Origin: an uncultured Acidobacteriota bacterium
Lineage (GTDB): Bacteria; Acidobacteriota; Thermoanaerobaculia; Multivoradales; JAHEKO01
Length of the DNA: 22,696 nt
Assembly (NCBI GenBank): GCA_963713825.1
Contig: CAVQNG010000006.1
Span: forward strand, 1-22,696
Direction of reading: 5' to 3'
The notes below the pieces were generated by a model, which was given only the letters and a program-made list of their open reading frames with translations, had not been told where the DNA came from and did not search any database. Shown here piece after piece: positions 1,101-22,696 of this stretch (position 1 is the stretch's first letter; each line of letters opens with the position of its first letter). Both the position numbers and the translations under genes were made by a program.

Positions 1101-1103
1101 GGT

Positions 1104-2085: not shown

Positions 2086-2098
2086 TCGGGATACCTCC

Positions 2099-3580: not shown

Positions 3581-3582
3581 CT

Positions 3583-3981
3583 CTAGCCGTCACCAGGCTT
3601 GTCTGAAGACCTGTCCTCGGAATCAGATTCCGACTTTGGGGGATCTTGAAGGCCCTCGGGTACACCGGTCGAACCGGAGCCGACCCCGTATTCCGGAAAG
3701 GGCCTATCGGTCGCTTTCTCGAGGCCCTGAATGAAGGCGGTGCTGAGGACTACGGCGCAGTTCGGGTGTCCGCTGGTCAGCTTCCTTCGGCAGAGCTCGA
3801 CTGCGCGATGCCATGTCTTGCTGTCGACTGCAGCTTGATCGGCCCAGAAGGCTGCGTCGTAGTCTGAGGAAAGCGTTGGCTCCTTCAGGGATTCGATTGC
3901 GTCAGGGCTGCGGGTACCGCGGGAGCAAGCCACTGAGACCACGGCCAGTGCGAAAAGCACCAAGAGAGAACGGACTGTCAT
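3583..3981 (-). CDS. Lipoprotein in the TrbK/entry-exclusion position
   Basis: Lipobox (LAVVSVA-C) and two further Cys (ELC...PNC); lies between trbJ and trbL. Entry exclusion is inferred from synteny only. Confidence 0.6.
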   Translation of the reverse strand: MTVRSLLVLFALAVVSVACSRGTRSPDAIESLKEPTLSSDYDAAFWADQAAVDSKTWHRAVELCRRKLTSGHPNCAVVLSTAFIQGLEKATDRPFPEYGVGSGSTGVPEGLQDPPKSESDSEDRSSDKPGDG

Positions 3982-3997
3982 GGATCGCCTCACTTTC

Positions 3998-4765
3998 CTA
4001 GCCCCCACAGGAGAAGCAGGGATACGGCCACCCCGAGGGAATCCCGTTGGATCCTCCCTCTCCTAGATAGTCGGGAAAGGGCTGCTCTCCGTTGTCCAGG
4101 ACCCAGCGCTGGGTGGCTTCACGGTTGGCGTCGAGCGTGACTTGATAGCCCCAGTAGACGTTTTGCGCGTTGATGCTGGCCGCGAGAAGCTGATTCAGCT
4201 TGGCCAGCTCTTGGCCGCTGTGGGCGCCGATCATGTTGGCGACGTTCAAAGCCTCGAGGTTGCCCTCGGCGCTGTCGGCCAGCGCCTGGAGCTCGGCGAG
4301 CTGCTCTTGGGTGGAGAAGTAGTCGCGAGCCTGGGCGCTCACGGCATCCAGCGTGGCGGCCAGGGTGTCCAGGGTCGTCGTGGTCCACTGCCCGAAGGCC
4401 TCGTTGTAGTTCGGTTCCTCCGTGGGCACGGCCCCGGCGAAGAGATCGCGGTACGCCTCGTAGAGACCCTCGAGCGAGTAGGAGAGGGCTTCCCCCTGCT
4501 GGGAGAGCTCATTGAGATAAACCAGCCACCCTCGTAGATCACGCCAGCTGGGGTCGCCGATCCGCTCGAGATTTCGATACATGGTTTCGATCTGGTCGAT
4601 CTGGTTCTCGATTTGCTCGAGCGCCCTCACCGCCTGGAGGATGTTCTCGGCCAGGTTTGCGGGGTCGATCACGGCCATCTGACCGATGGTCTTGGGTGCA
4701 GCTGCCAGGGACAACAACAAGCAGACGGCGGTGACGCGAGCCCGAAGAGCCACAGAATGAGTCAT
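3998..4765 (-). CDS. trbJ: Conjugal transfer protein TrbJ/VirB5
   Basis: Signal peptide, VIDPANLAENILQAVRALEQIENQIDQ, SAEGNLEALN; ATGA overlap with the trbE stop. Confidence 0.88.
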   Translation of the reverse strand: MTHSVALRARVTAVCLLLSLAAAPKTIGQMAVIDPANLAENILQAVRALEQIENQIDQIETMYRNLERIGDPSWRDLRGWLVYLNELSQQGEALSYSLEGLYEAYRDLFAGAVPTEEPNYNEAFGQWTTTTLDTLAATLDAVSAQARDYFSTQEQLAELQALADSAEGNLEALNVANMIGAHSGQELAKLNQLLAASINAQNVYWGYQVTLDANREATQRWVLDNGEQPFPDYLGEGGSNGIPSGWPYPCFSCGG

Positions 4766-7199: not shown

Positions 7200-7201
7200 G
7201 G

Positions 7202-7528
7202 CTAGCGCGGTTGCTTGTGGAACGGATGGATCGGTGCGAGCGGAGCCTCGAAGCTCGCGAGCGCGGGGTAGAAGGGCTGATAGAGCAGATGGCGGGCATA
7301 AACCCTCCACATCTGTGGGTCGAATCGCGCAGCAATCACCAGCAGAGAGTGGCCTGCCGAACCGAGAAGAGCAGCCAGCAGAAACGTGATTGGATGCGGC
7401 CCAACGCCGAGCAGGAGTACGACGATGGCCAGGAGATTGATCAACACCAGCTCCCGCTCGGCTCCGCCCAGGAGGATAGGTCGAACCAACGAGGCGTGAA
7501 TCGGGGCCTCCAGGGAGTTGCGGCTCAA
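7202..7528 (-). CDS. trbD: Conjugal transfer protein TrbD/VirB3
   Basis: PIHASLVRPILLGGAERE, two TM segments, ARFDPQ; TTG start overlaps the trbC stop. Confidence 0.88.
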   Translation of the reverse strand: MSRNSLEAPIHASLVRPILLGGAERELVLINLLAIVVLLLGVGPHPITFLLAALLGSAGHSLLVIAARFDPQMWRVYARHLLYQPFYPALASFEAPLAPIHPFHKQPR

Positions 7529-7845
7529 AAGACCGCTCCTGTGAATCCGAGGGCGGCCAGGAACGTGACTGCAGCCAGAGCGATCGCGCCACCGAAGACG
7601 ATCTGAGAGACCTTTCGGCCGCCGGTGCCATGCTCGGTGAAGGACCAGGCGAGGCCGGCCACGACAATCGCGGCGATCACCAGCAGGCGCGCAACCGTGC
7701 CGGTCAAGTTGTCGATCAGGGCCTGGAGGCCCGTGTCCCACGGCATGGCGGGGCCGCTGATGCTTGCCCCGGCCACGGCAGGGAAGAGGGTTGCCAGCAC
7801 GAGTGCCCAGGCGGCAAGACGGAGGCTAGGAGGATGTGAGTTCAC
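7525..7845 (-). CDS. trbC: Pilin TrbC/VirB2
   Basis: AAGGAG RBS and GTG at 7845; signal peptide, MPWDTGLQALIDNLTGTVAR, two hydrophobic helices. Confidence 0.88.
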   Translation of the reverse strand: MNSHPPSLRLAAWALVLATLFPAVAGASISGPAMPWDTGLQALIDNLTGTVARLLVIAAIVVAGLAWSFTEHGTGGRKVSQIVFGGAIALAAVTFLAALGFTGAVF

Positions 7846-8835
7846 TCGGGATTCTCCTTCTTCAGCAGGTGGATCGGCGATCGGCTCGACATGGAATTCC
7901 CCGTCCGGGCCGAGTCCCTGAACGGAAACGAGTTGCCGGACCCGGCGACTGCTGCCCTGGCGTTCCATGTGGACCACGAGGTGAACCGTGGAGGCAATCA
8001 GGCGTGTCTGGGAGGGGACGCCGGCTTCCTGTGCTAGCTGGTCGAGGCGAGTCAATGCCTCAGCCGGCGCTATTGGCATGCACCGTGGCGCAGCCGCCGG
8101 GGTTTCCGGTATTCCAGGCTTTGAGAAGGTCCAGGGCTTCCGCACCACGGACCTCACCGATGATGATGCGATCGGGTCGCAGTCGGATCGCGGCCCGAAC
8201 CAGGTCTCGCAGGGAGACGTTCTCGGTCGTGTGGAGGGTGACGTGGTTGGGTGAGTTGCACTGGAGCTCGTAAGTGTCCTCGAGGAGCAGAAGGCGTTCC
8301 GCCCGCGGTGCCAGCCATTCCATCTCACGGATGATGGCGTTGGCCAGAGTCGTCTTACCGCTGCCCGGGCCTCCGGAGATGAGGATGTTCTTGCGGCCGA
8401 AGATGGCTCCCTGAAGAACATCAGCCTGCGCTAGGGTGAGGATGCCCTCTTCGACATACTGATCCAGCGTGTAGATCGAAGTGGCCCGCTTGCGGATCGC
8501 GAAGACGGGGGAGGGGACTACCGGAGGCAGTAGGCCCTCGATCCGGCTCCCATCCAGCGGCAGCTCCGCCTCGAGGATCGGATGCTGATCGTTGACGACT
8601 CGATTGAGTAGACCGGCGACCGTGGAGAGCAGGCTCTCAGCCTGTGGATCGTCCATCGTGGCATCCAGCCGAACCAGCCCCTTTCTCGCGAGTCGATCCA
8701 CAGCTCGCCATCGGCGTTTCGCATCACCTCCGTGATGTCGTCATCAGCCAGTGCTTTGGCGACAGAATCGCCGAGCTCGCGGAGGAGGGATTCGCGGTGG
8801 CGAGTCGTGGATTCGTGATGTGAAAGGATTTTCAC
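7842..8835 (-). CDS. trbB: Conjugal transfer ATPase TrbB/VirB11 (2-3 frameshifts)
   Basis: Pieces in three frames: ITEVMRNADGELWID; ELPLDGSRIEGLLPPVV, Walker A GGPGSGKTT, LEDTYEL, LRPDRIIIGEVRG, WNTG, TVHANS; EALTRLDQL. Confidence 0.92.
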
Positions 8836-8846
8836 TGGGCGCTAAC

Positions 8847-8883
8847 TCCTATTTCTGTAGTAGTTAATACTACAAAAATAGGA
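8847..8883. promoter_or_regulatory. AT-rich 37-bp inverted repeat over the likely trb promoter and RBS (putative operator)
   Basis: TCCTATTT-C-TGTAGTA-gttaa-TACTACA-A-AAATAGGA. On the minus strand TTGCAC-17 nt-TATTAA and AGGAG precede the trbB GTG. Confidence 0.65.
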
Positions 8884-8923
8884 TAGGTGCAAGAGGAGCA
8901 ATTATTTGAGGGGAGATGGGGGA

Positions 8924-8981
8924 CCCTAGGCGAGGCGATCAGCGACGCGAAACGTCGTCCGTCTGCATTGCCTTCCTAGCC
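8924..8981 (-). repeat. attC-like 58-bp hairpin with non-canonical core
   Basis: Minus strand GGCTAGG-AAGGC-AATGCAGA-...-GCTGATC-GCCTCG-CCTAGGG gives the 7/5/8...7/6/7 spacing of integron attC sites. Confidence 0.6.
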
Positions 8982-9583
8982 AGTTCCCGCTGTGTGTTCC
9001 CAGCCACTTCGACAGCGCGCCTCAACCCTGCGTGGGTAACCGAATTGCCGGACAGTTCTCGCAAGGACGGCAGCGTGATCGAGTGCTGGCTTCGTTCTCG
9101 ATTGTCGAGCAATATCGTTGGGATGACGAAGAACTCCCATTGAGAGACCTCAAGAGGATCGAGAGTCTCTTGGTCGGTATGCGCAAGCAGCGCGAAGACA
9201 TAGACCTCCGCTTGCCGTCGCGTGTGGTCGCTTTGCCGGCCAGTGTGCTTGTCCCATGCACGAGTTTTTGGGACCCGAAAGGTGATTTGTGAGAGTTTGT
9301 CCTGATGCCAGCTCTGTATGTAGGCTGCAGACTTGACTTCAACTTGTGTGCCATCGAGTGCCTTCAGATCGTAGGCAGCCCATTCCTCGCGGACACCTCC
9401 AGCAACTCCGAGCGCCTGAGCAACGAGGTACTCCGCGAGAACGCCCCGCGTCGCATTGCTGACGACATCCGACGCACTCCACTGCCAGAAGCTCAACAGG
9501 TCGAAACCCAGCGTTCGGCCAGAAGCGTGGAAAGACTCGTGTCCGTCTCGTCTCTTCACCTCAATCGGTCCGAGATTGCTCAT
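8939..9583 (-). CDS. PD-(D/E)XK restriction-endonuclease-like protein
   Basis: RGVLAEYLVA...WAAYDL...DGTQVEVKS catalytic pattern; the start overlaps the 3' end of the Shedu gene. Confidence 0.7.
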   Translation of the reverse strand: MSNLGPIEVKRRDGHESFHASGRTLGFDLLSFWQWSASDVVSNATRGVLAEYLVAQALGVAGGVREEWAAYDLKALDGTQVEVKSAAYIQSWHQDKLSQITFRVPKTRAWDKHTGRQSDHTRRQAEVYVFALLAHTDQETLDPLEVSQWEFFVIPTILLDNRERSQHSITLPSLRELSGNSVTHAGLRRAVEVAGNTQRELARKAMQTDDVSRR

Positions 9584-10717
9584 CTGATTCACCCTCTAGT
9601 GCCTCAATAAGTATGCGCAATTTTGCTACCAGCTCATCAAACGTAACCACCACCACATCCTTCAGTTCAGCACGAAAAAGCTCGATGGCAGGTTTCCTCG
9701 TCGGAACTAGTTGGCACTGGTGGCGTTTCCAATGATGACGAGACACTTTGGCCGAAACGCGTGGAATCGACTTTGCGACCTTCCTACTAGTCCATCGTAT
9801 TCCTTCACCAGCGAATCACGATAGGTCAGGACCTGCTGACTGATCGCGCCGGCCAATTCGCGGCTCGGCGCATAGACACCAGTCCTGTACTCGTGCGATT
9901 CCAGCAGCGGGGTGGTCGGTGTCTTCAGCTCCACAATAACGGCGTTTTGGGTGACAGGGTTCTTTGCCAAATAGTCGGCAAGATGTCCACCGTGATACTC
10001 AATCCCCTTGCCCCCCACAAAGGCCTTCCCCTTGATGATCAAGATCGGGACCGCCACGAGTTGGGCCAGCACGAAAGCATGCTCTTCTAGAGCAGCTTGC
10101 CAGTAGTCCTCGCCTCCCTCCTCAAGTCGGCCTTCCCATTCAGAGAGAACATTCTTGAGGCTCGCGAGTCGGGTCAGGACACCAAGACGATCAAGGCTCG
10201 ATATGTCCAACCTTTGAATCCGATCGACGACGACCTTGGAATCACCCACAGAGGCGACCCACTCAAGGAACTGCGACAGAACATCGACCCCAGCCCTTTG
10301 GCTGAGCGCTACGATACGCTCGAAGTCGAAACGATTGGCAACTTCTTCGGCGTTGTCGTCTGCAAGGTCGAGCTTGAGAAGATGGATCTTCCCACTAGGC
10401 AGACCATGACGTTGGTGGTGGCGGTATAAGGCAGCCATGTGCCGTAAGAAAGCATGGACCTCGTCCGCACTCAGCTTCAGCTTGACCCACTCACTTGCCT
10501 TGAGGTGAGTGAGCTTCAGTTCGCTATGATCCTCCCAATCCTCGGCTTTTCGTTTTCGCTGAAACACGAACGTGCCATCAATGCAGGCCTTTGGATCATT
10601 CGGGTTGTTCAACAGAACGGCCTTGAAAACCAGTCTCCGCTGATCAGTCTCCCGAAGCGTTATTGGCTGGCATTCAGCCGTTCTTCCGGACGTTCTAGTT
10701 ATTGAGAAGGTGTCCAT
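9561..10717 (-). CDS. sduA: Shedu anti-phage nuclease SduA (DUF4263), frameshift near 9715
   Basis: ADYL...VIVELKTP, ELAGAISQ(Q)VLTYR, CLVIIG; the family C-terminus ELFRAELKDVVVVTFDEL is in ORF 9561-9746. Confidence 0.85.
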
Positions 10718-10773
10718 TCTTGCTCATCTAGGCAAGACTTTAGGGAGTGAGCACATCTTAGCCTCAACACCCG

Positions 10774-10833
10774 TCAAGCGGGATGATCTGAGCGGCCCGC
10801 CAGCGGCGGTTCTGCTCAAATGATGGATTAGGT
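10774..10833 (-). repeat. Degenerate attC-like 60-bp hairpin
   Basis: Minus strand ACCTAAT-CCATC-ATTTGAGC-agaaCCGCCgctGGCGGgcc-GCTCAGA-TCATCC-CGCTTGA. The TAA in the first box is the upstream gene's stop, as in gene cassettes; the R' box is decayed. Confidence 0.5.
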
Positions 10834-11659
10834 GGCCTCCTCGGCCGCTTCAACCTTGTCTTCGGATTTCATGTTGATGCTCGATAATTGCTGAAGTGGA
10901 TACGTTTCTAGCACGATCAGGCGATCCCGCAGCAAGACGCCGGACCACTTCTTGTAGACGAGTACGGAGGATTCGATGCCGTTGACGAGGGTCTTCATCG
11001 GTTCGAACGTAGCGCTGCCTTCCGTCATTTCTTGAGAGATCACCTGCTGCCTTTCCTCTGGGGATAGGTACATGTGCGGCAGGATCATGTAGCTGACTCT
11101 TGGGGGACTCATTGGTCTGAATCGATTCAGACATACCTTTTGCCAGAGGAGCGGTGCGCTTGGGCCCAAGTATCGGCGATCGATCTTCTTCATGAGCCGA
11201 AGCGCCATTGCAACGGCTCTGAGGATCAGCCGGTAATCGATGTGAAGGTACGTTCTGTCGTCCCATGTCTGTGGCGCAACCTTGTGACTGATGTCGCGAT
11301 CGCGTTTCTCCTTGAAACGGTTGTTCCGAATGAACCGGGAGAAGTACTTAGCCTCATCTTCGAGGTCACCTAGTTTGAGGGTGGCCAGATGGAAGGTCAG
11401 TCGCGTTTCTTTGCGTTCAGCTAGTTCCGCTAACCGGGCGGTGAGTTCGTCCGCAAGCTTGTCGGTGAGGATACGCAGCGCAGTGATCTCGGGATTCTTC
11501 ATGTCCGCAGCGACATCGTCAGTTTGAGATCTGCGGAAGTTCCACCGAGAACGATCGAAGCAGCGTCCAGGTCACAATCACCTCTCCGACCTCTCCTCGG
11601 AGGTTGGAAATAGGGACATCAGTCTGCGTTCGGAGGACTCGTAGCTTTCGTTTGTTCAT
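10828..11659 (-). CDS. Putative HEPN-domain protein (AbiU2-like), frameshift near 11535
   Basis: Helical protein with an Rx4-6H motif (KRDRDISHK); the N-terminus MNKRKLRVLR...LRGEVGEVIVTW is in the adjacent frame. Confidence 0.55.
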
Positions 11660-11931
11660 CAAGAGCGTGCCAGGGCCACCAGGGAATCGATTTCTATACC
11701 TACGATAACGAATAGTACCGCAGCAATTCACATGCCGTCGCATCTTCTGGATGCTGACCGAATCGCGTTGTATCCTTCTGCTCCCCAATGAGTTACGTCC
11801 CGGCGGAATCTTTTCTTGGGCGGCTTCAGGAGGCTGTATAGACCGAGAATTTCTCGCAACCCTTGGTCCAGCGTTGGGGGCGGCTTCAGCGTTATCTGGC
11901 GGTCTCTCGCAACCTGTCCAGATAGGAGGGT

Positions 11932-13891
11932 TCACCTGTCGGACTCTGCTGGAGAGGGTAGCTCGCCCTGGTCGCTAGCAACCTGTCTCAGGAAGTACCG
12001 AATCTTCCTCGCCCGAATCGGCGGATGCCCCGCAACAAAGATCAGCGCCTCGTCATCGGGCAATCGCATAGCTTCATCAGGCGTCAAAAGCCGACGCTGG
12101 ACCTGCTGCTGGGAGACGTACTGCTTGTTGAGAACCAGATCGAAGCGATCGCCGCGGTAGGAGCGCTGTTCCATGTGGACGGTCATATCGCCGGCCATGC
12201 GGCTGAGCAGGTCGGCGGTTTCGGGTTTGTTCGGAGCGAAGGCGATGCGGATGTGGCAGTTACCCGTGATGGACTCCTCGCGCCCGTAGACCCCGTAGTG
12301 CTGTGACAGGTCCTGGGTGATGAGAAAGGCGCTGATGCCATAGCCGGCGAGGTAGGCCAGGCTTTCCTGAAAGAAGGCAAGCCGACCCAGGGCAGGGAAC
12401 TCATCCAGCATCAAAAGGAGAGGTTGTCGGTAGTGGGGCACTTGCCGACCGTTCTCGAAGATCATCTTCTCGGTCAGGCGCCGAAGGGCCTGGTTCAAGA
12501 GCATGCGCACCAAGGGCCTCGTGCGGGCCAGATCGGATGAGGGCACAGTGAGGTAGAGACTCACCGGTCGCTCATGCTGCATCAGGGACTCGAGTCTGAA
12601 ATCGCTGGTCTCGGTGTTGGCTGCGAGAATGGGATCACGAAAGAGATCGAGAAAGGTCAGCGCCGTGGAGATCACGCCACTTCGCTCGTTGGGTGACTTG
12701 TCGAGAAGAGCCCGGGCGCTGGCGGCGACCACAGGGTGAATCGTGGTTGGCTCGCCGGTGGGGGAGTCAACCCAGCCCATCCGGCCCTCTGGATCGTGCT
12801 CGGTCAGGATCATGGCCTCGAGCGTTTCTTCGACAGGCCTCGCCGGATTTGTCAGGAAGTTGGCACAACCACGCAGGGTCTTGTCGGCCTCGGCATAGAG
12901 GATGTGCAGAATGACCCCGACGAGTAGGGCGTGCGCTGTCCGGTCCCAGTGGTCGCGGGCCCGATCACCGTTGGGGTCGATGAGAATGTCTGCGACGTTC
13001 TGGGCGTCACGGACCTCGTGGGGGCCGAGCCGGATCTCGGACAACGGGTTGTAGCGCGCGCTCGTACCCTCGGCGTCGGTCGGGTCGAACCGAATGCAGA
13101 CGCTCCCAAGCGCACGCTTCCGCCAACCGGCCGACAGGGCCCAGTTCTCACCTTTGATGTCATGCACCAGGACCGAGTGGGGCCAGGTGAGCAGATTGGG
13201 AAGCACCAGCCCCACACCCTTGCCGGTTCGTGTTGGTGCAAAGACAAAAACATGCTCGGGGCCATCATGGCGGAGATACCGGGGTCTCCCGCGATCTGAC
13301 CAGATACCCAGCAGAAGTCCCCTCTTGTTGTCGAGGAGTCCCGCCTCTCGAACCTCCGTCTCGGAGGCCCAGTGGGCCGATCCATGAGTGTCGGGCTTCT
13401 CGCGGAAGCGTGATGACTGAATCGTCAGATAGGTGAGGAGAAACACGGTACTGCCGCCGGCAGCGACAATCAAACCTATTCGCGGGGCTGCGAGAAGTAG
13501 CTCGAGGTCCCCACTCGCGCGGTATCGCCAGATCCAGAGCAGGATGTGGACGTGGAGTATAGAGAGGGCCGACGGCTAGAGCTCCGCTCACAAAGCTGAT
13601 GCATGCGAGCGGCACCACTGCGCGGCGAACGGAGCGAAGAAAGAGAACTGCTATGGCGGTGACACAGCTGCCCGCTGCCATCAGCAGGAGGTAGCGCCCA
13701 GCCTGAGCGGGGTGTTGGATCCACGGATCACCGAGATCGGGGTGATACCCGAGCTGGTGCGCGAAGTGCTGGGTGAAGAACCAGGAGACGATCCCTAAGA
13801 AGAGGAGATAGAGACCGAAGCCCTGGAAGACCAGGCCTCGATACTCCATCCTTCCGAAAGTGGGAAGACGATAGAGCTCCTTCTTTTTCAC
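11932..13891 (-). CDS. traG: Type IV coupling protein TraG/VirD4 (frameshift near 13555)
   Basis: N-terminal TMs, HGSAHWA, Walker A APTRTGKGVG, DIKGENW, Walker B LLMLDEFPALG, ITQDLSQ, RRLLTPDE. Confidence 0.95.
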
Positions 13892-14436
13892 TGGAGGGAG
13901 TCGGGCTGGGCCGGATCGATAATCCAGAGGGGTTGGACCTGGCCCAGGACCATTGAGCTCTGAACGGGCCCAAAGAACCGGCTGTCCCAGGAGTTCTCGC
14001 GGGGCGAGAACAGCCAGAGCTGGCCAGGGGAAAGGACATAAGAGCCGGCGGCAAGAGGGTAGAGGGTGCGACCTTTCGAGTCGACGGCCGGCGCCGGGCT
14101 CTGGATGTGCTGCCCATCCACGAACACTCCTTCAGGTTTGATCTCGACGCGACTGCCTGACGCAGCGACCACGTGTTTGATGACCGGCGAGGCGCCGGCG
14201 GGACATGAGCCCTGTCTCAAGTAACCGCGCTTGCGACCTAGCGTGCCAAAAGACTCGGGCAAGCAGGCAGCCACCAGATCTCCGAGCCCCACAGGAGATT
14301 TGCTGAGCCGGTAAAGACCAATCGGCACGCTTGGCGTCAGATTCAAGCGAAGGCCAGCGGCTTCAACGGCCCAGCAGGTTATGGCTGTACCCGCCAACAG
14401 GAGGATCGGCGTAAAGGATCGCGGTCGAAGCCTCAC
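13888..14436 (-). CDS. traF: Conjugative pilin-maturation S26 peptidase TraF
   Basis: NLTPSVPIGLY, RGYL..G.CP...VIKHV, SWDSRFFGPV. Confidence 0.92.
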   Translation of the reverse strand: MRLRPRSFTPILLLAGTAITCWAVEAAGLRLNLTPSVPIGLYRLSKSPVGLGDLVAACLPESFGTLGRKRGYLRQGSCPAGASPVIKHVVAASGSRVEIKPEGVFVDGQHIQSPAPAVDSKGRTLYPLAAGSYVLSPGQLWLFSPRENSWDSRFFGPVQSSMVLGQVQPLWIIDPAQPDSLQ

Positions 14437-15629
14437 GAGCGCCCACCTCTGTCCAACTCGAGAGAAGCATCGGCCACCTTGCGGCTGAGTGAGATCGTCA
14501 GTCGCAGTAGCTGTAGATGAGGGGCCGGCACTACCCGCGCGACCAGATGCCAGCCGAGCCGACTGATCAACCTGGTGGCAGTCTGAGATAGCTCTGATGT
14601 CTTGGGCTCTCGGTGCCGGGCGGGGGCCTTGGGACGGACCATGGCCTCGGCGACCTGCATAGTGCTCTTCGCTGCTCCTGTCTTGGAGATCGCGTGCTGG
14701 AGAGCGGTGCGAGCTTCGCGGAGGCTCGGGACCATGACTTCGCGGGCCGCCCTCTCGCTGCTTCGCTGAATCGCGATCCTCTCGGCTGTCTGACGGAGCT
14801 CGTGAATTTCCCGCCAGCGACTGGGTTGGGGTTTGGCAAGGGATTTGTCTGTCTGAGCCTCAAACGGTCCCAGCCGCTTCTGAAGCCGGCCGAGCGAGGC
14901 GTCACGATCCACAAACGATGCCTTGACCCTCCGCCGTCCGTCGGTCACGACCAGACCTCGGCCTCTCTTCTCGAGGTGAAGGCCGTAGTCCGCCAAACGA
15001 GTGTGGAGCTCTTTCCATGAGCGGGACTCCTGGAGATCTCGGCGAGCTACCTCCCGCACGTGCTCGCCAAAGGGGCGTTCCCCCGTGAGAGTCGAACCCC
15101 TGCGATCTCCGCTGCTGAGCTGAACACCGGTGTATCGATCTTGGTCGGGTAAGGCAGAGTGGCGACCAGGGACCTGTCGCAGCCCCAGCTCCAGCTCCTG
15201 ACGGCGGAGCGACCGCTCGAGGCGGGCGTAGTCATTGCCTGTGTGCCAGGCACGCTTCGTTTCCGGGTGGACGCGGTTCACCATGACATGGACGTGCTGG
15301 TGAGGAGTGTCATTGTGGGCCACTACAAGAGCCTGATGCTGATCCAGGCCCAGGTCCCGAAGGGTGCGGTCGACGACCTGGAGCATTGCCTCTCGGCCAA
15401 GGCGCTCCTCCGGGGGCAGATTGAGCGTCAGGTGATAGACGGGCTTCTTGACCCGCGCTCTCTCATTGGCAGTGACCCGCATGAAGGAGGCGGCGATCTC
15501 TGGATCGGTTGAAGGGAGATTTCGGCCGGAGACCCATTCCACTCGATCGGCTGCCTGACCGTCCTTTCCGGTCAGCAGATAGGACTGCAGTCCTTTGAAT
15601 CCTCGACCGTGGGTGACTTTCGCGATCAT
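14433..15629 (-). CDS. MOBP-type relaxase (Relaxase/VirD2-like)
   Basis: GRGFKGLQSYL (catalytic Tyr), PVYHLTLN, 3H motif AHNDTPHQHVHVMVNRVHP. Confidence 0.92.
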   Translation of the reverse strand: MIAKVTHGRGFKGLQSYLLTGKDGQAADRVEWVSGRNLPSTDPEIAASFMRVTANERARVKKPVYHLTLNLPPEERLGREAMLQVVDRTLRDLGLDQHQALVVAHNDTPHQHVHVMVNRVHPETKRAWHTGNDYARLERSLRRQELELGLRQVPGRHSALPDQDRYTGVQLSSGDRRGSTLTGERPFGEHVREVARRDLQESRSWKELHTRLADYGLHLEKRGRGLVVTDGRRRVKASFVDRDASLGRLQKRLGPFEAQTDKSLAKPQPSRWREIHELRQTAERIAIQRSSERAAREVMVPSLREARTALQHAISKTGAAKSTMQVAEAMVRPKAPARHREPKTSELSQTATRLISRLGWHLVARVVPAPHLQLLRLTISLSRKVADASLELDRGGRS

Positions 15630-15955
15630 GAGAGATGCCGTATGGCGCTGAGGATCTGGGTGAGTACCTCATTCAGGTGCCGCGTGTCGCCGAGTCGACC
15701 TGTCGCGTTGGCGACGTAGGCCAGTTGGTTCAGGTTGTTGCCGATGCGACCCAGGTGGTAGATGGCCTTTTCCTCGACACGCCGAGGCCGGGCCCGAGGA
15801 ATGGTGCCCAAAGCGGCCGTCCGTAAGTAGGTCGAGAGGGGAGTGCCGCAAAGCTCCGCCCTTCGGGTGAGCTTCTGATGTTCGTGAGGCGAGAGGCGAA
15901 CGGACAGGACCTCGGTGCGCCTGTGGACCGCGTCGACCCTGCGGTCACACGCCAC
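15626..15955 (-). CDS. mobC: Relaxosome accessory protein MobC (RHH)
   Basis: SVRLSPHEHQKL...LSTYLR..AL and LGRIGNNLNQLA; AAAGGA RBS before GTG 15955; ATGA overlap with the relaxase. Confidence 0.9.
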   Translation of the reverse strand: MACDRRVDAVHRRTEVLSVRLSPHEHQKLTRRAELCGTPLSTYLRTAALGTIPRARPRRVEEKAIYHLGRIGNNLNQLAYVANATGRLGDTRHLNEVLTQILSAIRHLS

Positions 15956-15988
15956 AGCCGTTCCTTTTGAGCGCCCGGCAGGGTTGCG

Positions 15989-16017
15989 AAAAAGAGGGCT
16001 TTCCCACGGGAAAGTCC
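15989..16017 (-). terminator. Hairpin plus U-rich tract upstream of mobC (terminator or oriT inverted repeat)
   Basis: Minus strand GGACTTTCC-CGTG-GGAAAGCCC followed by TCTTTTT. Confidence 0.45.
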
Positions 16018-16204
16018 CGAGCCGTGATGACAGAAGCGCCCCCGGCGCGTATGACATCGCATTGCTCGCATAGGAAGCGAAGTGCTGTCCACACCCATCC
16101 TGTGTGCTCGAGGCGCTGGACTTCGAGCGTCAGGGTGGACGACGGACCTGGATCGCTACCGGGAGCTCGGGTTGGTGGTCGTGGCGGGCTCCATCGCCTC
16201 GCCG

Positions 16205-16375
16205 GCTTGGAAGACAGTTTTGTTCTGGTCTCGCGGCAGATGAACCATGCTCGCATTCGGGCCTCGTGGGCCATCTCTTCGTTCGGTTCGGTGAGGGTGC
16301 ATAGTCTCGCTGGAGTGCCTTGGACGGTTTGTCCTGGGCCATGCAATGCGTCGATGCTGTCCCTCGAATCCTTTT
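16205..16375 (-). ncRNA. Putative bridge/seek RNA of the IS110 (ends approximate)
   Basis: Two consecutive stem/internal-loop/hairpin units (16287-16368 and 16210-16280) carry the target match (16338-16350) and the donor match (16248-16256). Confidence 0.7.
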
Positions 16376-16459
16376 GCCGGAGAGCCGTTTGGCGCCTCGA
16401 CACCAGGCCCGCCTCCGCCGGTCGCGGTTGTCGGTCCGTTCCGGTCGGGAGTCGGGCGC

Positions 16460-17497
16460 CTAGGTCATGGCTCGGTAGACCTCCTCGTTCTTCCACATGG
16501 CCAGTACGGTTGCGGCGATCTTGCGTGCAATCGTCAGCCTGGCCAAGGGCGGGCGAGTGCCGGCCTCCAGGAGCCGGTTGTAAGCCTCTTTCAAGGGATG
16601 ACCGGCCTTGGTCTGATGAATGGCTGTAATGGCCGCGCCCTTGAAGATCGCCTTGAGCGTCGGATTGTGGTTGCGATTGAGCCCTCGAGTCTGGACGGCC
16701 TGGGCCTTGATCCAGCCGCTTTCGGTCTGCACCCAGTCGGCCGAGCTGCGCGTGACGACTCCGAAACCGCAGTAGCTCCAGAATTGCCGTTTGCTGCGAA
16801 ACCGGTGCGGCGTGATGACGGTCGCGATCAGCATCGCCGCCCGGATCGGTCCGATGCCCGGAGCCGTCTCCAGCACCCTCGAGATCCGATACGTGTGCGA
16901 CTCCTTGACCAGAGCCCGCTCGGCCTCGGCTCTCAGCGCGGTCACGGAGTCGAGCTCGAGTCCGAGGAGTCTCGCCGGCGCTCGCATCGCCGCGGGCAAC
17001 TGCTCCAGCCACGGGTCTCGGTGCTGGGGATCGTAGACGCTGTTCCCTGAGCAGTGAATCCCACGGCGGCGCAGGTGGCTCTTGAGCCGATTCTTGGTCC
17101 GCGCGACATCCTGAGTCATCACACGATAGACACGGGCCCACTCGCGTAGCTGCCGGAAACGTCTTGGGGACTTGAACACTCCGGGTCCGGCCAGGCCGAT
17201 GCGCAGCTTCTCGGCCAGGCCGTGCGCATCGATTGCATCGCTCTTGGCTCCCGGTGACCACTCGTTCTGGTAGACCACCAGCTGGGCCGCATGTGGCGAG
17301 AGGATCTCGTAGAGCCATTCGCTCCAGGTACTCTCTTCGATGCAAATGTGCAGCGTTCCCCGCAGCTTGCCCACCGAGCTGACCAGGGCATGCCCGTTGG
17401 TGGCCACGACCTCCTGGGTCACGCGCTTGCCGGTAGCGCTCAGCACACAGATCGTCGAGCTGTCGCGGTGGACGTCGACACCGATGTATCGTTCCAT
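16460..17497 (-). CDS. IS110-family DEDD recombinase/transposase, 345 aa
   Basis: AGGAGG RBS and ATG 17497; YIGVDVH, CIEES, KSDAIDA, TAPGIGPI, RFRSKRQFWSYCG...RSS, ARKIA. Confidence 0.95.
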   Translation of the reverse strand: MERYIGVDVHRDSSTICVLSATGKRVTQEVVATNGHALVSSVGKLRGTLHICIEESTWSEWLYEILSPHAAQLVVYQNEWSPGAKSDAIDAHGLAEKLRIGLAGPGVFKSPRRFRQLREWARVYRVMTQDVARTKNRLKSHLRRRGIHCSGNSVYDPQHRDPWLEQLPAAMRAPARLLGLELDSVTALRAEAERALVKESHTYRISRVLETAPGIGPIRAAMLIATVITPHRFRSKRQFWSYCGFGVVTRSSADWVQTESGWIKAQAVQTRGLNRNHNPTLKAIFKGAAITAIHQTKAGHPLKEAYNRLLEAGTRPPLARLTIARKIAATVLAMWKNEEVYRAMT

Positions 17498-17612
17498 GGC
17501 GGTGTTCCTCCTTTCGGGCTCGATGCCCGGGTCGTTGTCTTGCCAACCCAAGCATCTCCCGATTGGGGGAGACCGCCACCATCGGATTCCTCAATTCAGG
17601 TCTCTCCTCTGC

Positions 17613-17650
17613 ATGGCGACATGACGCGTCTTACTACGTAGTCTTGCTGC
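17613..17650. other. Putative oriT (nic-proximal part), split from mobC by the IS
   Basis: Directly upstream of mobC in the empty allele; hairpin arm, palindrome ACTACGTAGT (17633-17642) and GTCTTG|C resembling MOBP nic sites. Confidence 0.45.
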
Positions 17651-17767
17651 TCCGTGCACGTGGATCTGTCTCCGACTCGTCAATCTCCAACTTTCCCGCT
17701 GTCGTCGAAGCTGTTGAAGGTGGGGGAATCCCTCCGGGGTTTCCAGGTTGGGGGTTCGGGAGGGCAC

Positions 17768-17906
17768 CTTCCACAGCTGGCCGAGCTGCTACAGGAAGAG
17801 ATCTACAGGAACCACTATAGGGAAGGGGTGAGAGTTTATGCGTGGTCGCGGTCGCCAAAGGGGGAGAGTTTATGCGTACCGAGGGGGAGTGTTTATGTGT
17901 GGAAAT
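17768..17906. repeat. Iteron array / putative oriV
   Basis: Three copies of AGGGG(T)GAG(A/T)GTTTATG(C/T)GT (17823-17843, 17858-17877, 17882-17900), CTACAGGAA twice (17789, 17803) and a DnaA-box-like ATTTCCACA on the minus strand (17898-17906), all just downstream of repA. Confidence 0.7.
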
Positions 17907-17929
17907 TCCAGGTTTTCCCCAGGTTGAGA

Positions 17930-18793
17930 TCACGGTTCGAGTCGTCTCCGAATGTGGCAGGGTGAGGGCTTGAGAAGGAGTCCACCGCGGACCTGCTCGA
18001 CTCGAGCAGCGGGGTAGAGTACGAGTACCTGGCGGAGTCCGGCGAGGAAGTAGCGCTTGAAGTCTTTACGGTCTCGATAGTCGGCCCCGAATTGCACCGC
18101 AAGAGCAGCCCAGGGAATCCGAGAGGGCTTCCTCAGGTAGCTGTTGCGATGGGTGAGCCAACTGTAGATATCGAGCGCCATCGGGCTTCTGAGGGCTTTG
18201 AAGGCGCGAAGGTCTATCGGAACGGGCCGTTCACACACGGCCTCGAAGAACCCGGGGCTCAAAGAGACCGTTGAGCGCCACGAGACCGCCTGCTCAGGCC
18301 TCACTGGGTTCCACCAAAGATGAGCTTCGTCTGAAACTCGAAAACCCCGGTCGTGCCATTCGCCTGAAGCCCGTTTGTCCCAGGTGAAGGCAATGGTCGC
18401 TCCGAATAGCCGTTGCATCTGGTCTCGGAGTCGGCCGATGGGACCAGTCCGTCCGCCTCGTGGGAGCAGGCCGAGCTGAGCCATGAAGCTGCTCAGCGAC
18501 GGGCCGAGCTGCAGTACAGGCTCCCGAGTTCGAACTGCCTCCGTCGTGACCCAGGCCATGAGGAGTCGAGGGTAGCGGCCGTACGGTAGCTCTAAGAGCG
18601 GATGAGCCGTGATCGAGACGCGGAGTGAACCGTTGGTGCGCACAAAGGTCTTCGTCCGCTGTCTGCTGTGGGGGAGAGTGGTCTGAACGAGCAGCCGCGC
18701 CATGAAGCCCAGTGCACCAGCTCTCTTGGCTTCCTCCGCCTCGATGAGGAGTGACTCTCGGAGGAGTCTGTCTTCGGGCGTCTGACGGCCGAT
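17930..18793 (-). CDS. repA: Plasmid replication initiator RepA (RepA_C type)
   Basis: IEAEEAKRAGALGFMARLLVQTTLPH, LPYGRYPRLLMAWVTTEAVRT, SPMALDIYSWL, QFG. Family-like sequence extends upstream of ATG 18703 to an in-frame ATC at 18793 behind GGAGG. Confidence 0.85.
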   Translation of the reverse strand: MGRQTPEDRLLRESLLIEAEEAKRAGALGFMARLLVQTTLPHSRQRTKTFVRTNGSLRVSITAHPLLELPYGRYPRLLMAWVTTEAVRTREPVLQLGPSLSSFMAQLGLLPRGGRTGPIGRLRDQMQRLFGATIAFTWDKRASGEWHDRGFRVSDEAHLWWNPVRPEQAVSWRSTVSLSPGFFEAVCERPVPIDLRAFKALRSPMALDIYSWLTHRNSYLRKPSRIPWAALAVQFGADYRDRKDFKRYFLAGLRQVLVLYPAARVEQVRGGLLLKPSPCHIRRRLEP

Positions 18794-18875
18794 CTCGAGC
18801 CTCCAGACCTAGAAATGCGCATTCTTCAAGGTCTCGAAGGCTGTCAGTTGGGCGATCAGTGGATTCCAAGTGGTG

Positions 18876-18891
18876 CCCGTTGGGGACACCA
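18876..18891 (+). repeat. att core 1: tRNA-Glu-like 3' end fragment
   Basis: CCCGTTGGGGACACCA, identical to 21465-21480; it ends in CCA and has the GGGGAC acceptor strand typical of tRNA-Glu. Confidence 0.8.
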
Positions 18892-19197
18892 ATTTTGTGC
18901 CAATCCACCGAGAACAGGCTCTGAGGTGACGCTGCTGACTTGGACCCCCTCCGCGACCAGCCCCGCTTCCAGGCCCTGCTGGAAAGTCAAGGGCAGGACG
19001 CGGAGTAGCCTCGGAAACCGGCTCCCGGAAGCTTCGGTAGCTTTGGTAGGGTTCGTAGTCTTGAGGCCTGTGGGGACTCTGGCCCTGGTGGGCGAAAAAC
19101 ACCGAGCAGGCCTTACGATATATCGAGGGCGAACCCGATCTGGGACTCCGAGTGTCGCTACTGTTGACTAAATAGCTGTCCTGCCTACTCATACTCT

Positions 19198-20247
19198 ATG
19201 TCGAACCGGTTTTCAGCAATATCGCTTGGGCTCCTGGCTCTCCTCTCGGCCGAGGGTAGACCGGGTGCGGCAGAGTTATTGCAGGCCACCGCTGGAGAGC
19301 AAGGATTGTATGCGGTACGCATCGGTGAGCAGCTGATCGTCAGAAGGATCGGATCGGAAGGTACGTCGATCGATGCTCCGCAGAGCTCTGATCTCTACTC
19401 ACTGCGCCCGACGGCTCACGGCTGGGTCGCCGGCGGTCACGCGCTGACCGATACGGGTGATGCCGACCTTCTGTTGGTGCAGCAATTCGAGGGTCAGCTC
19501 GAAATGCTGCCGCTGCCCGACAAGGGCGCTGGCATGCTGCGAGGACAGCCGGTAGTGCTCGTGAGCGACGGTGGTCTCGTCGGACTAGCCTGGGTCGAAG
19601 GCGACAGGCAGAGTGACCTCCAGATTTGGGCTGCCAGGTGGACCGGTAGCGAGTGGGGTGAGACGGAGGCGGTATCTGGGCCTGGGCCAGGGAGTCAGTT
19701 GGCTCTGGCCGGGGCTGTTCTGGAAGACGGCAGCTGGCTGCTGGTCTGGACCGGTTTTGACGGCGAGGACGACGAGACGCTGTTCAGCCGCAAGGTCCAG
19801 GGAATCTGGTCAACGCCCGAGCTCGTGCATGCGGACAACCAGGTACCCGACATTACACCAACTCTCGTTGCTCTGAGCGACGGTGCGGTGGCTGCCTGGA
19901 GCTGGTTCGACGGCAGCGACTACCGCATCAAGACGGCGCGTTTCGATGGGCAGGATTGGACCGTCAACGAGGCGATTGGCGGCAAGGGTTCGGTCTACCC
20001 AACTCTTGTTTCCACCGAGCTGGGTGCACAGCTCCTGTTTCATTCTGTCTCTCCAGAAACCTGGACCGTCGTCGAAGTCGACGCGATGGGCTTGTTGTCT
20101 CGCATCACGTCTCTGCCGAAGAGCACTCGGAGCCGGCCGCTTCTTTTGGGCTCGACTTCCGATGAGGTGAGATTCGCATGGCCGTCGGAGACGGGGATGA
20201 TCGATGGCGCGGCGATCAGGAACCAACCCTGGGAGCCGCTGCGGTGA
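19198..20247 (+). CDS. Secreted hypothetical protein (beta-rich, Trp-repeat, possibly propeller-like)
   Basis: 349-aa ORF with a signal peptide and repeated 'W...DG.D...W' segments; its stop overlaps the next GTG. Confidence 0.7.
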   Translation: MSNRFSAISLGLLALLSAEGRPGAAELLQATAGEQGLYAVRIGEQLIVRRIGSEGTSIDAPQSSDLYSLRPTAHGWVAGGHALTDTGDADLLLVQQFEGQLEMLPLPDKGAGMLRGQPVVLVSDGGLVGLAWVEGDRQSDLQIWAARWTGSEWGETEAVSGPGPGSQLALAGAVLEDGSWLLVWTGFDGEDDETLFSRKVQGIWSTPELVHADNQVPDITPTLVALSDGAVAAWSWFDGSDYRIKTARFDGQDWTVNEAIGGKGSVYPTLVSTELGAQLLFHSVSPETWTVVEVDAMGLLSRITSLPKSTRSRPLLLGSTSDEVRFAWPSETGMIDGAAIRNQPWEPLR

Positions 20248-21332
20248 GATTGGCGGTGAGATTCTTCCTTCGGGGCGTTCTGATCGGGGCGTTTCTCAGT
20301 GCACCGGCTTCTGGGCAGATTTTTCGCTGGTTGGCATTTGGCGACAGTATTACCGCAGGTTGGTCTGATGACATCAACCCTTCGGGCGGTTATCCAGGAA
20401 GGCTCGAGAACGACTTGGGCTGCACACCCTCGACCTGTCAGGTCGTAGAAAAGGGCTTGAGCGGCGAGACCACGTCCGAGGGTGTCACCAGAATCCGACA
20501 GGTGCTCAACAACAGTGGCCCCGACCCTTACGATGTAGCGTTGATCATGGAGGGGACGAACGACATCTTCCAACCCAACAACATCAGCAACGTCTCGATA
20601 CCCACGATCATGTTCAACCTCAACCAGATGGCGACGAAGGCGGAAAAGGCGGGGACCGAGGCAGTTCTCTCTTCGATCATCTGGCTACACCCTGGAGGAC
20701 AGCACGGCACCAGTCGCGATCAGCTGGTGGAAGACCTCCGCGACCGGATCTCGAGCTCCGCCAGGAACAATTCACGGCTCTTTGCCGATACCTGGTCGAG
20801 GTTGTGCCCAGACGGGCAGGATCAGCACGGGCATTCACAAAACGCGTGCTTCTGGAATCATGACCACTACTGGCTCAACGGTGGGCAGCCCGATGTTGTA
20901 GGGCACCCGAACAGCTCCGGTTTCCGGATGATCGCGGACGAATTCTTCGCCCTGATCGACTCGAGCCCGGTGCCGGGCCTGGCGGTACCGAGTACCCCGT
21001 CGGGCATGATCAACGATGCGACTCCAATCCTGACTTGGATGAAAGAGAGTCCAGCCTTGGCGTCGTGGTATCAGGTGCGAGTCACCGGACCTGGAGGCAC
21101 GTACTTTCAGTCCTGGGTCAAGGCGAGCCAGGTCTGCTCTGGAAGCACCTGCTCTACCGAGGTGACTTCATCACTCGATGACGACAATTATGCCTGGCAG
21201 GTCATGAGTCGCAACGTGCGAGGCAGAAGTGGCTGGAGCAGTCAACAGAGCTTCACGATTGGTAGCCCGGCCATGTTCGACGACGGCTTCGAGTCCGGCG
21301 ACACTTCGGCCTGGTCGAGTACAGTCCAGTAG
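20244..21332 (+). CDS. Secreted SGNH/GDSL hydrolase with C-terminal FN3-like domain and FxDGFESG tail
   Basis: Blocks FGDSIT, GLSGETT, EGTND and D..GHPN; GTG start at 20244 with signal peptide; ends MFDDGFESGDTSAWS. Confidence 0.85.
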   Translation: MRLAVRFFLRGVLIGAFLSAPASGQIFRWLAFGDSITAGWSDDINPSGGYPGRLENDLGCTPSTCQVVEKGLSGETTSEGVTRIRQVLNNSGPDPYDVALIMEGTNDIFQPNNISNVSIPTIMFNLNQMATKAEKAGTEAVLSSIIWLHPGGQHGTSRDQLVEDLRDRISSSARNNSRLFADTWSRLCPDGQDQHGHSQNACFWNHDHYWLNGGQPDVVGHPNSSGFRMIADEFFALIDSSPVPGLAVPSTPSGMINDATPILTWMKESPALASWYQVRVTGPGGTYFQSWVKASQVCSGSTCSTEVTSSLDDDNYAWQVMSRNVRGRSGWSSQQSFTIGSPAMFDDGFESGDTSAWSSTVQ

Positions 21333-21458
21333 CTGGCCGGGCCGCACACCCAGTCCTTTCTTACCATCGGTTTCCGGGGGGCATTCCCCTCGCGGGATGA
21401 CACGGCCCGCCGCGTCCCGTCCACCGGAAACCACCGATCTATGCGTATCCACAAGGCG

Positions 21459-21480
21459 TCAAGTCCCGTTGGGGACACCA
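21459..21480 (+). repeat. att core 2: longer tRNA-Glu-like 3' fragment
   Basis: TCAAGTCCCGTTGGGGACACCA includes part of a T-loop; no 5' tRNA half lies upstream. Confidence 0.8.
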
Positions 21481-21555
21481 GCTCGCCCCCAGCCCGACCA
21501 CCCGCCTCGCCGGTGCGCCCAACAACAGGGTTGAACCCCTGCCTATTCGAAACTG

Positions 21556-21963
21556 TCAACCGATCCGGGTCGACGCTAGGTAAGTGATAGCGCTGATGCT
21601 CGTACAGAGCACCATGCCCCAGGCCATGTCGACCAGCACCACCCGCAGGGGAAACCCCTCGAGGGTTGCCAGGTTGGTGAGATCGTAGGCGGCGTAGGTG
21701 ACGAGTCCGAAGAGGGCGCCGAGGATGCAGGCGTGGCTCAGGCTCTGGCGCTCCATGGCCGGCCCCACCACGAGCACGATGATGCCGAGAATGAAGACGA
21801 GGTAGAACGCGATCGCTGCGATCCAGTTGACGTTGGCGCGCATCAGGTGGCCCATGTGGGTCTGGTAGAAGGAGCGCGCCACGACGCCAAGCCAGACGAG
21901 ATCGATCACCAGGAAGCTGATGAGAGCGACCGCGTAGAGCTTCATGAAGTTGGGCATGGTCAT
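21556..21963 (-). CDS. DUF2177-family membrane protein
   Basis: IDLVWLGVVARSFY, GALFGLVTYAAYDLTNLATL, DMAWG. Confidence 0.85.
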   Translation of the reverse strand: MTMPNFMKLYAVALISFLVIDLVWLGVVARSFYQTHMGHLMRANVNWIAAIAFYLVFILGIIVLVVGPAMERQSLSHACILGALFGLVTYAAYDLTNLATLEGFPLRVVLVDMAWGMVLCTSISAITYLASTRIG

Positions 21964-22000
21964 GTCGTCTTCCCTCTTGCTGACGAGATCGTCGCTCCTA

Positions 22001-22474
22001 TCATCGGTTGAGCATCCAGATCGAGCCATTGAGTACTGCGGCAAAGCTCACCCATGCCAGGTAGGGCAGCATCAGAAGTGCGGCAGCCGGGACGACGCGA
22101 CGGAAGATCCACACGGTGGCGACGATCGAGAGCCACAGCAGAAGGATCTCGGCAAATGCTACTCCCGGCGACTGCAGACCAAAGAAGAGGATCGACCAGA
22201 GCCCGTTGAGGGCAAGCTGGGCCGCGAAGAGGGTGAGGGCGAGCCTGACGTCCTTGGTGCTGAAGCCCTGGCGCCAGACGAGGAAGGCCGCCACTCCCAT
22301 CATGATGTAGAGCACGGTCCAGGTGGGTCCGAAAACCCACGCCGGCGGGTTGAAGAAGGGCTTGGTGAGGGTTGGATACCATGTCGCGACGCTTCGGGCA
22401 GTTACAAAGCCTGATAGGCCACCGACCGCCAGTGGGATGGCGACTGCGATCCCAAGTTTGAGGGTGTTGTTCAT
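22001..22474 (-). CDS. tspO: TspO/MBR tryptophan-rich sensory protein
   Basis: WYPTLTKPFFNPPAWVFGPTWTVLY, QLALNGLWSILFFG, PYLAWVSFA. Confidence 0.95.
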   Translation of the reverse strand: MNNTLKLGIAVAIPLAVGGLSGFVTARSVATWYPTLTKPFFNPPAWVFGPTWTVLYIMMGVAAFLVWRQGFSTKDVRLALTLFAAQLALNGLWSILFFGLQSPGVAFAEILLLWLSIVATVWIFRRVVPAAALLMLPYLAWVSFAAVLNGSIWMLNR

Positions 22475-22582
22475 TGGCACTGGACTCGATGATACCGAGA
22501 GCGCTGAGGCAGAGTCCAAGACGCACGCTCTCGGAGTCGATCGTCCTCACCTCGTCGATTCCCTGCGGCTGGTCGTCCGGTG

Positions 22583-22640
22583 CCCGGGCTCAGTAGTTTC
22601 CCGAGGCGGCTTCCTTGAGGATCTCCTGGTCCAGCATCGG
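22583..22640 (-). pseudogene. IS3-family transposase scrap (orfA/orfB junction)
   Basis: LDQEILKEAASGNY* overlaps GKLLSP in another frame through the GGGAAAC slippery sequence. Confidence 0.6.
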
Positions 22641-22696
22641 CTCGGGCTGAGATGTGCGAACAGGGCAAGAGCATGACTCGTCGGCAACCGCTGGCT

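Follow-up and report, generated by a model that had tools for sequence, protein, structure and literature searches.

The stretch analyzed here, hereafter the window, is an entire contig of 22,696 nucleotides (G000:C6:1-22696) from the genome of an uncultured Acidobacteriota bacterium, assembled to 5.4 Mb in 38 contigs and 96% complete. Positions 1 to 18891 are a conjugative element of the Trb/VirB kind, the body of a Trb-type (mating-pair formation type T, MPF-T) integrative conjugative element (ICE) that is read from the minus strand and runs off the start of the contig. In minus-strand order it carries, with products named from Pfam matches, RepA_C, a small open reading frame (ORF), an IS110 transposase, NikA/MobC, a MobA/VirD2 relaxase, an S26 TraF peptidase, a VirD4-type coupling protein, Shedu SduA, TrbB, TrbC, VirB3, TrbE, TrbL, VirB8, CagX/TrbG, and TrbI, the last of these open at the contig end (3-1100). 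By these matches a relaxase, a coupling protein, a VirB4-type ATPase, and mating-pair genes are all present on one element. Our subject is the end of this element that carries repA, where an attachment (att) site, a short reading frame, and the start of a replication initiator gene lie side by side, and where excision of the element may decide whether that initiator is made.

The repA gene (17930 to 18793, minus strand) encodes a member of the RepA_C family (PF04796; E 1.1e-27, 97.9 bits against a cut-off of 26), with a proposed start at ATC 18793-18791. Its frame is open from 18808 and is the same frame as that of an upstream ORF, from which it is split by a single TAG (18809 to 18811, minus strand). 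On the minus strand, TTG GTG TCC CCA ACG GGC at 18892-18875 gives L-V-S-P-T-G, which continues as TTWNPLIAQLTAFETLKNAHF up to that stop. We read these 27 codons (18812 to 18892, minus strand; LVSPTGTTWNPLIAQLTAFETLKNAHF), called the tail below, as the severed 3' end of a large serine recombinase gene. GGAGG at 18800 to 18804 (minus strand) is the likely Shine-Dalgarno sequence of repA, and the ATC begins 16 nucleotides past the tail stop, a spacing of 15 nucleotides. A first-pass annotation made from the letters alone had given the same LVSPTG reading, the stop at 18809, the GGAGG, and the repA frame, and all of these were correct when the minus strand was read again.

The tail begins at the junction of the element with the chromosome. 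Sixteen nucleotides at 18876 to 18891 (plus strand, CCCGTTGGGGACACCA) match the 3' end of the genome's own tRNA-Glu(UUC) at 16 of 16 positions. That tRNA gene occupies C11:1-75 (minus strand), where base 1 of the contig is its 3' end, and the start of C11 falls inside the 3'-terminal CCA of the tRNA, within the 16-nucleotide block of identity. ARAGORN found no tRNA inside the window, and Rfam gave no match in 17500-22696. In a genome of the same genus (G004), the sequence after an intact tRNA-Glu on contig C42 shows 82% identity with window positions 18876-18922, and the DNA to the right of the core can therefore be recognized as the native downstream region of the tRNA gene. Two further genomes (G003 and G005) are collinear with the window only from about 19016, with a 60-bp repeat at 18939-18998 in between.

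Logan contigs from four runs in four studies were compared at the same place, one run (X3) being without coverage of the junction. Contigs from three runs, each from a different study, diverge exactly at 18891 into three different sequences. Up to 18891, those of X6 and X8 equal the window without a difference and that of X1 shows seven differences, and another contig from X1 bridges the junction as the window does. The only RNA runs, X19 and X20, contained no more than a 0.07 share of the sequence words. A site-specific junction lies at about 18891/18892, and window positions 18791-18892 are the repA-side junction (attR) of the conjugative element in the extreme 3' end of tRNA-Glu(UUC). The att core proposed in the first-pass annotation keeps its identity with the tRNA-Glu 3' end and its site-specific junction. 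Because the enzyme is a serine recombinase, as set out below, the P' half-site plus crossover region of attR, with crossover near the CCA end, is a better reading of the 16 nucleotides than the classical duplicated core of a tyrosine recombinase. Judged by the recombinase family, they would in the window element be mostly the element's own P' half-site, mimicking the half-site of the tRNA.

Relatives of this repA in genome collections carry the same module upstream, and RepA relatives in public data are found mostly in metagenome-assembled genomes of Thermoanaerobaculia (Acidobacteriota). A degenerate pattern for the tail matched 65 stretches of metagenome sequence, some 55 being true copies, and the conservation figures given here refer to the 37 intact copies among 51 unique ones. 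The same kind of scan across the class matched 5 of 401 genomes, all of them already found by other routes. None of the conclusions depends on the unpublished genome G006, which contributes only to a few tallies and to a single row of results. Two main types of tail can be told apart: type 1, the window's own, begins VSPTGTTW... and has the core TGGTGTCCCCAACGGG, and type 2 begins VARLVPTS... or VALRLPLS... and has the core TGGTAGCCC. Across codons 10-27 the summed column entropy is 8.73, 5.96, and 14.17 at codon positions 1, 2, and 3, leucine codons change synonymously between TTG and CTG, and the position of the stop is fixed in every copy (TGA in 25, TAG in 11, TAA in 1). The first 9 or so codons vary at all positions (summed entropy 8.04, 10.66, and 7.78) and track the target tRNA. 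Flanking sequence, as far in as the first base of codon 1, is random, with column entropies of 1.6-2.0 bits that mostly lie near 1.9.

By these measures the tail is a conserved coding segment. A half-site would also vary with its target as the first 9 codons do, and replication origins often lie beside repA genes; both would suit a reading in which conservation acts on the DNA alone, as the P' arm of the recombinase, an origin, or iterons, and the open frame is incidental. The coding pattern of codons 10-27, the synonymous leucine changes, a stop kept in place in three spellings, and the existence of natural recombinases that end with the tail peptide make that reading extremely improbable.

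Those recombinases were reached through a profile of the tail, which gave 19 matches among 1.84 billion representative proteins. Sixteen are ORFs of 36-128 amino acids that end in the tail, and the remaining three are a protein with the tail at its N-terminus, a partial match, and an unrelated repeat protein. Among the 16 is P0132, a 91-amino-acid fragment that starts ...LWVEADLDQRQRLQKLFFPEGLTWAYGEFRTAVTCPYFNNLEG... and runs straight into ...MVALRDRLSNPLIVDLTDFESLRTAVG. In genome G021 a degenerate recombinase gene reads into antisense tRNA-Glu, and the first part of P0132 matches the C-terminal region of that gene. Most of the 38 homologues of this G021 segment are about 500 amino acids long, and most have Resolvase, Recombinase, and zinc-ribbon domains; PTGFEP occurs within the last 40 residues in 33, and the other 5 end in the antisense of other tRNAs. 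The first-pass annotation had stated that recombinase genes running into a tRNA-Glu 3' end finish ...SPTGFEPV, and this family of large serine recombinases bears the statement out.

The same annotation had held that such enzymes also possess alternative tails, and here the evidence comes from closely related pairs. P0132 gave 18 matches among longer proteins. Over the stretch they share, P0178 (503 amino acids) and P0132 are 96% identical, but P0178 ends ...GEMVAHTGFEPVLPP (...MVAHTGFEPVLPP). P0188, with domains PF07508 and PF13408, and P0190 carry a related tail at their ends (...SSNTPGDSNTLVSWLREVAALRQAA); P0186 is 91% identical to P0188 over 329 amino acids, yet it ends in antisense tRNA, as does P0184. 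P0194 (535 amino acids), which has the resolvase catalytic, Recombinase, and zinc ribbon domains, finishes with a tail-like ...WNRVADWLREAERFSTAA. At the level of DNA, the metagenomic contig L087 preserves 25 codons from the end of such a recombinase gene and continues through the tail into repA; it is the only one among the roughly 55 tail-bearing stretches that runs on into intact recombinase sequence. In L105, a decayed recombinase C-terminus is continuous with the tail. L087 and L105 may be circles or tandem junctions, and the reading frame crosses the site either way. Both C-terminal forms of such recombinases occur in nature, in relatives of the window element, and the tail is one of the two ends available to recombinases that read into tRNA-Glu.

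One could also regard the 27 codons as an independent unit, a leader peptide or an ORF upstream of repA, that starts from an NTG at the junction and was captured only secondarily by some recombinase genes. Codon 1 is Leu in 14, Met in 12, and Val in 4 of the 37 copies, and the 16 short library ORFs that end in the tail have the look of such a unit. The first base of codon 1, however, is supplied by the flank, no conserved ribosome site precedes it (the flank stands at about 2 bits), the short ORFs start at arbitrary flank positions, and in P0132, P0188, P0190, P0194, L087, and L105 the tail extends a recombinase C-terminus without a break. We regard a leader peptide as very unlikely.

Other owners of the tail were tried and rejected. 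A tyrosine integrase was considered, and the five PF00589 matches in the genome include none on C6. The tyrosine integrase beside repA in genome G043, whose C-terminal helix the tail was guessed to resemble, gave no BLASTP alignment with it. The other candidate was a second large serine recombinase, frameshifted and cut off by the contig end at C3:1 (G000:C3:3-2067, minus strand, L015), with 161 family matches; in the best 120 of the 161 the family is conserved as far as ...GSEAAQFEL and then continues into variable tails of other kinds, such as GHSWTKPWAA, which suggests that attP, the attachment site of the circle, lies inside the 3' end of the gene in another recombinase family too.

In four relatives the recombinase lies where such a split gene would have to lie. 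In G042 (about 20 kb), G041 (about 9 kb), and G043 (about 11 kb), tail, repA, and further genes follow one another on a single strand, and 9-20 kb downstream of repA, at the far end of the element, comes a full-length recombinase from this family. The two junctions of these elements have only GGTAG(C) in common, a length that suits a serine recombinase crossing over near the CCA end of the tRNA. G032 holds a complete form over about 97 kb, with a 32-codon tail (VVDLTHPSSNTLGDSNTLWAWLREVAELRQVA), repA, trb genes, and a recombinase that ends ...RRMVARTGFEPVLPA and overlaps a tRNA-Glu(CUC) by 38 nucleotides; this recombinase and that of G042 have all three domains. ARAGORN detected no tRNA in the 40-60 kb walked from repA in G041 and G042; their recombinases run into non-tRNA or tRNA-like remnants.

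The first-pass annotation had placed an integrase gene at the far end of the element, reading into the tRNA, and had supposed that excision restores attP inside that gene, swaps its C-terminus, and puts repA directly behind it. The relatives agree with it on the position of the gene on the repA strand (G041, G042, G043, and G032) and on the structure of the split gene, and what they cannot supply is the window element's own recombinase, which is not assembled. We infer from these relatives that it shares their layout. The habit is wider still. The genome has nine RepA_C matches, the others including four copies on C1 and copies at C3:669962, C11:9967, and C35:7189, and other RepA_C subfamily copies have antisense tRNA 3' fragments (GFEPT, RDSNP, IRTR) 70-110 codons upstream of repA, so an att site beside repA is a wider habit of these elements. 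Two decayed tail-repA remnants also lie at G000:C3:1146822-1146900 and 1155562-1155640 (L059), downstream of a tRNA-Glu(CUC), among a tRNA-like fragment and a partial tyrosine integrase, in what looks like an old hotspot of tandem integration.

The start of repA is as regular across copies as the end of the tail. GGAGG stands 5-10 nucleotides past the stop in 35 of 37 copies, and the sixth codon past the stop is ATC in 23, ATT in 11, and ATA, GTT, and CTC in 1 each, hence isoleucine in 35 of 37. None of the three positions is conserved in the preceding codon, which is what one expects of a spacer that is not translated. A canonical in-frame start within the first 16 codons occurs in none of the 37 copies, and in the window no ATG, GTG, or TTG precedes ATG 18703, which itself lies inside the conserved N-terminal region. 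No sigma-70-like promoter was found in 18400-19400 by a crude consensus scan, which is weak evidence in this phylum. A strong ribosome site with no canonical start, placed behind arbitrary chromosomal DNA and beside a divergent gene when the element is integrated, suggests that RepA is made mainly from the circle. All of the element's genes seen in the window read one way in the circle, so that transcription could also run round into repA. It may even be that only the excised circle makes RepA, as far as can be judged from sequence. Read-through of the stop to give a recombinase-RepA fusion was judged unlikely, since three different stop codons are in use and one copy (L037) has the tail out of frame.

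We think it probable, on this evidence, that the window contains the attR of an element in tRNA-Glu whose far-end recombinase gene spans attP and loses its tail on integration, and that excision rejoins this gene to repA. A large serine recombinase would insert the element at the extreme 3' end of tRNA-Glu(UUC), its own gene extending across attP from the other end of the element, on the same strand as repA. Integration would sever the last 27 codons of that gene and leave them beside repA, and the integrated recombinase would instead end in 12 antisense-tRNA codons, VSPTGFEPVLPA. On excision the two ends would be rejoined and the recombinase would regain its conserved tail, ...NPLIAQLTAFETLKNAHF, with its stop now 4 nucleotides before GGAGG and 15 nucleotides before the AUC of repA. 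The repA message would be transcribed together with that of the recombinase and translated by coupling or by re-initiation at the AUC, mainly or only in the circle, and plasmid-like replication would in this way be tied to excision.

A more elaborate version assigns a different task to each end of the protein, and we offer it only tentatively. Under it, the tail-bearing isoform made in the circle would integrate, the tRNA-ended isoform made in the integrated state would excise, and ribosomes finishing the tail would re-initiate at the repA AUC, in the circle only. The amphipathic-looking tail might then tune directionality, partner binding, or stability, and RepA would be made in fixed proportion to the integration enzyme.

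Several observations weaken the main reading or narrow its reach. The more distant G032 element has a separate ATG for repA about 125 nucleotides past the tail stop, so tight coupling is confined to a subfamily. L037, besides having its tail out of frame with repA, has no GGAGG. The contiguous examples of recombinase and tail could be junctions between tandem copies and not circles; the NTG at the junction, present in 30 of 37 copies, could itself start a 27-codon ORF while the element is integrated; AUC can initiate on its own, weakly; and a promoter could lie inside the tail, given that the scan used only a crude sigma-70 consensus. A tblastn search of the assembly with six members of the recombinase family found only a remnant, at C12:1818-2207, and the search for an attP contig with the window's type of tail came up empty, the loose end in X8 being 30 nucleotides long and unassignable.

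If the tail is the split end of a recombinase and repA nonetheless works independently of excision, through a weak promoter of its own in or near the tail and a start at AUC in either state, the adjacency of the two would reflect only compact packing of genes around attP. The ATG in G032, the copy in L037, and the room that a consensus scan leaves for non-sigma-70 promoters all suit this account. Against it stand the retention of the 15-nucleotide spacing, GGAGG, and a non-canonical start by 35 of 37 copies, in both types of tail, the lack of a canonical start in all 37, and an upstream flank that is arbitrary chromosomal DNA (entropy about 1.9-2.0 bits). We therefore consider an excision-independent repA unlikely, and continue to prefer the reading in which excision rejoins the recombinase gene to repA.

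The far end of the window element is not seen, since the remnant on C12, which reads into a tRNA-Glu-like site, is the only family recombinase in the assembly. With the window being the whole contig, there is no DNA to its left to inspect, and terminal overlaps sought among the 38 contigs for the far end were absent. PF00239 and PF07508 matches in the genome are confined to C3:798-1479, which belongs to another family. In an assembly that is 96% complete, with C6 ending in trbI, the recombinase may simply be unassembled, and the end of C6 in trbI together with the position of tRNA-Glu at the end of C11 accounts for its absence. The contig break inside the terminal CCA of the tRNA is compatible with a mixed population or an unresolved repeat and proves neither.

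A conserved non-coding stretch of about 150 nucleotides occurs in the window at 21333-21482 (plus strand) and again at G000:C12:1690-1857 and C34:18275-18443. It follows genes ending ...FESGDTSAWS, has no Rfam match, and ends GTCAAGTCCC(G/C)TTGGGGACACCA, which matches 19 of 24 nucleotides of the T-arm and acceptor 3' strand of tRNA-Glu(UUC). The stretch holds a second, 14-nucleotide copy of the core (21465-21478), and the recombinase remnant reads into its C12 copy; the stretch could be a secondary attB, or else an RNA resembling tRNA. The same contig C12 (L140) has a cyclic di-GMP riboswitch (c-di-GMP-I-GGC) at 672-763, plus strand, upstream of a gene, with a score of 78.7 bits that is above the gathering score.

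Elsewhere in the window, an IS110-family insertion sequence (16460 to 17551, minus strand; PF01548, PF02371) lies between the repA module and mobC and may break an operon of the element. A Shedu anti-phage defence gene, with the N- and C-terminal domains of SduA, is carried as cargo between traG and trbB (9707-10717, minus strand), and G+C content around it is lower, at about 0.53-0.56. Beyond the junction, the chromosomal flank (18892 to 19015) consists of the native sequence downstream of tRNA-Glu and the 60-bp dispersed repeat, which has many copies in the genus and shows very high contig depth and many loose ends in the Logan runs. The adjacent chromosomal gene (19198-20247) is divergent.

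Conjugative elements that have excised risk being lost when the cell divides, and the timing of their replication is known in few models. If the proposed switch operates, it would be a purely topological solution, since the recombination that frees the element would also rebuild the recombinase frame and set the start-less repA behind it, linking excision, the capacity to re-integrate, and copy maintenance without a dedicated regulator. Large serine recombinases are in wide use as tools for genome engineering, and their extreme C-terminus could then be a natural module that depends on the state of the element. For annotation, the split gene explains short "orphan" ORFs beside repA and the odd ...SPTGFEPV ends of many recombinases in databases. 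Searches of open-access full texts turned up no description of a conserved alternative recombinase tail coupled to repA, and parallels are found in the separate parts of the arrangement.

Gene order is shared with a Tn4371-like ICE on G043:C6 (L057), which has the same succession of repA, mobC, relaxase ... trbB to trbI and a RepA of the RepA_C family. There, a tyrosine integrase (PF00589 with an arm-binding domain) stands directly upstream of repA, and there is no tail. The repA-proximal tyrosine integrase typical of the Tn4371 family is absent from the window, where C6 has no PF00589 match; its place is taken by the att site and the tail, and a serine recombinase would lie at the far end. 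Expression that depends on the circle is known from ICEclc, where an outward promoter drives the integrase, from Tn916, where transfer genes are joint dependent, and from Tn4451, where a promoter at the joint serves TnpX. As in these elements, joining of the ends would create a transcription unit present only in the excised form. They join a promoter to a gene, however, whereas the window element would rebuild an ORF across attP, and the gene proposed to be switched here is a replication initiator with a non-canonical start. Mycobacteriophages such as BPs show integration-dependent immunity, with attP in the repressor gene, a tyrosine integrase, and a degradation tag that is swapped on integration; the likeness lies in an attP inside a coding gene whose C-terminus is exchanged, the gene being a repressor in BPs and the recombinase itself here.

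Archaeal integrases of the SSV type (review, PMC8371274) also have attP in their own gene, which is split on integration, as here; these tyrosine recombinases are split near the middle and inactivated, whereas only the last 27 codons would be exchanged in the window element. SGI1 is an integrated element with a plasmid-type repA whose activity is timed with excision, as we propose for the window element, but its control is transcriptional, through the activator of a helper plasmid (PMC7826253, PMC7433901), and does not arise from the topology of the att junction. A precedent for the recombinase is in the ssrA islands of Dehalococcoides (McMurdie et al. 2011, PMC3146451), in which the DsiB serine recombinase gene always overlaps attL at its 3' terminus and reads into the antisense of the small RNA gene, and the authors suggest that the recombinase may be fully functional only on the circle. 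Its description of these islands has divergent C-terminal parts and mentions neither a conserved alternative tail nor conjugation genes nor a replication gene following attP. The family represented in the window differs in having a conserved tail, with repA 15 nucleotides past its stop.

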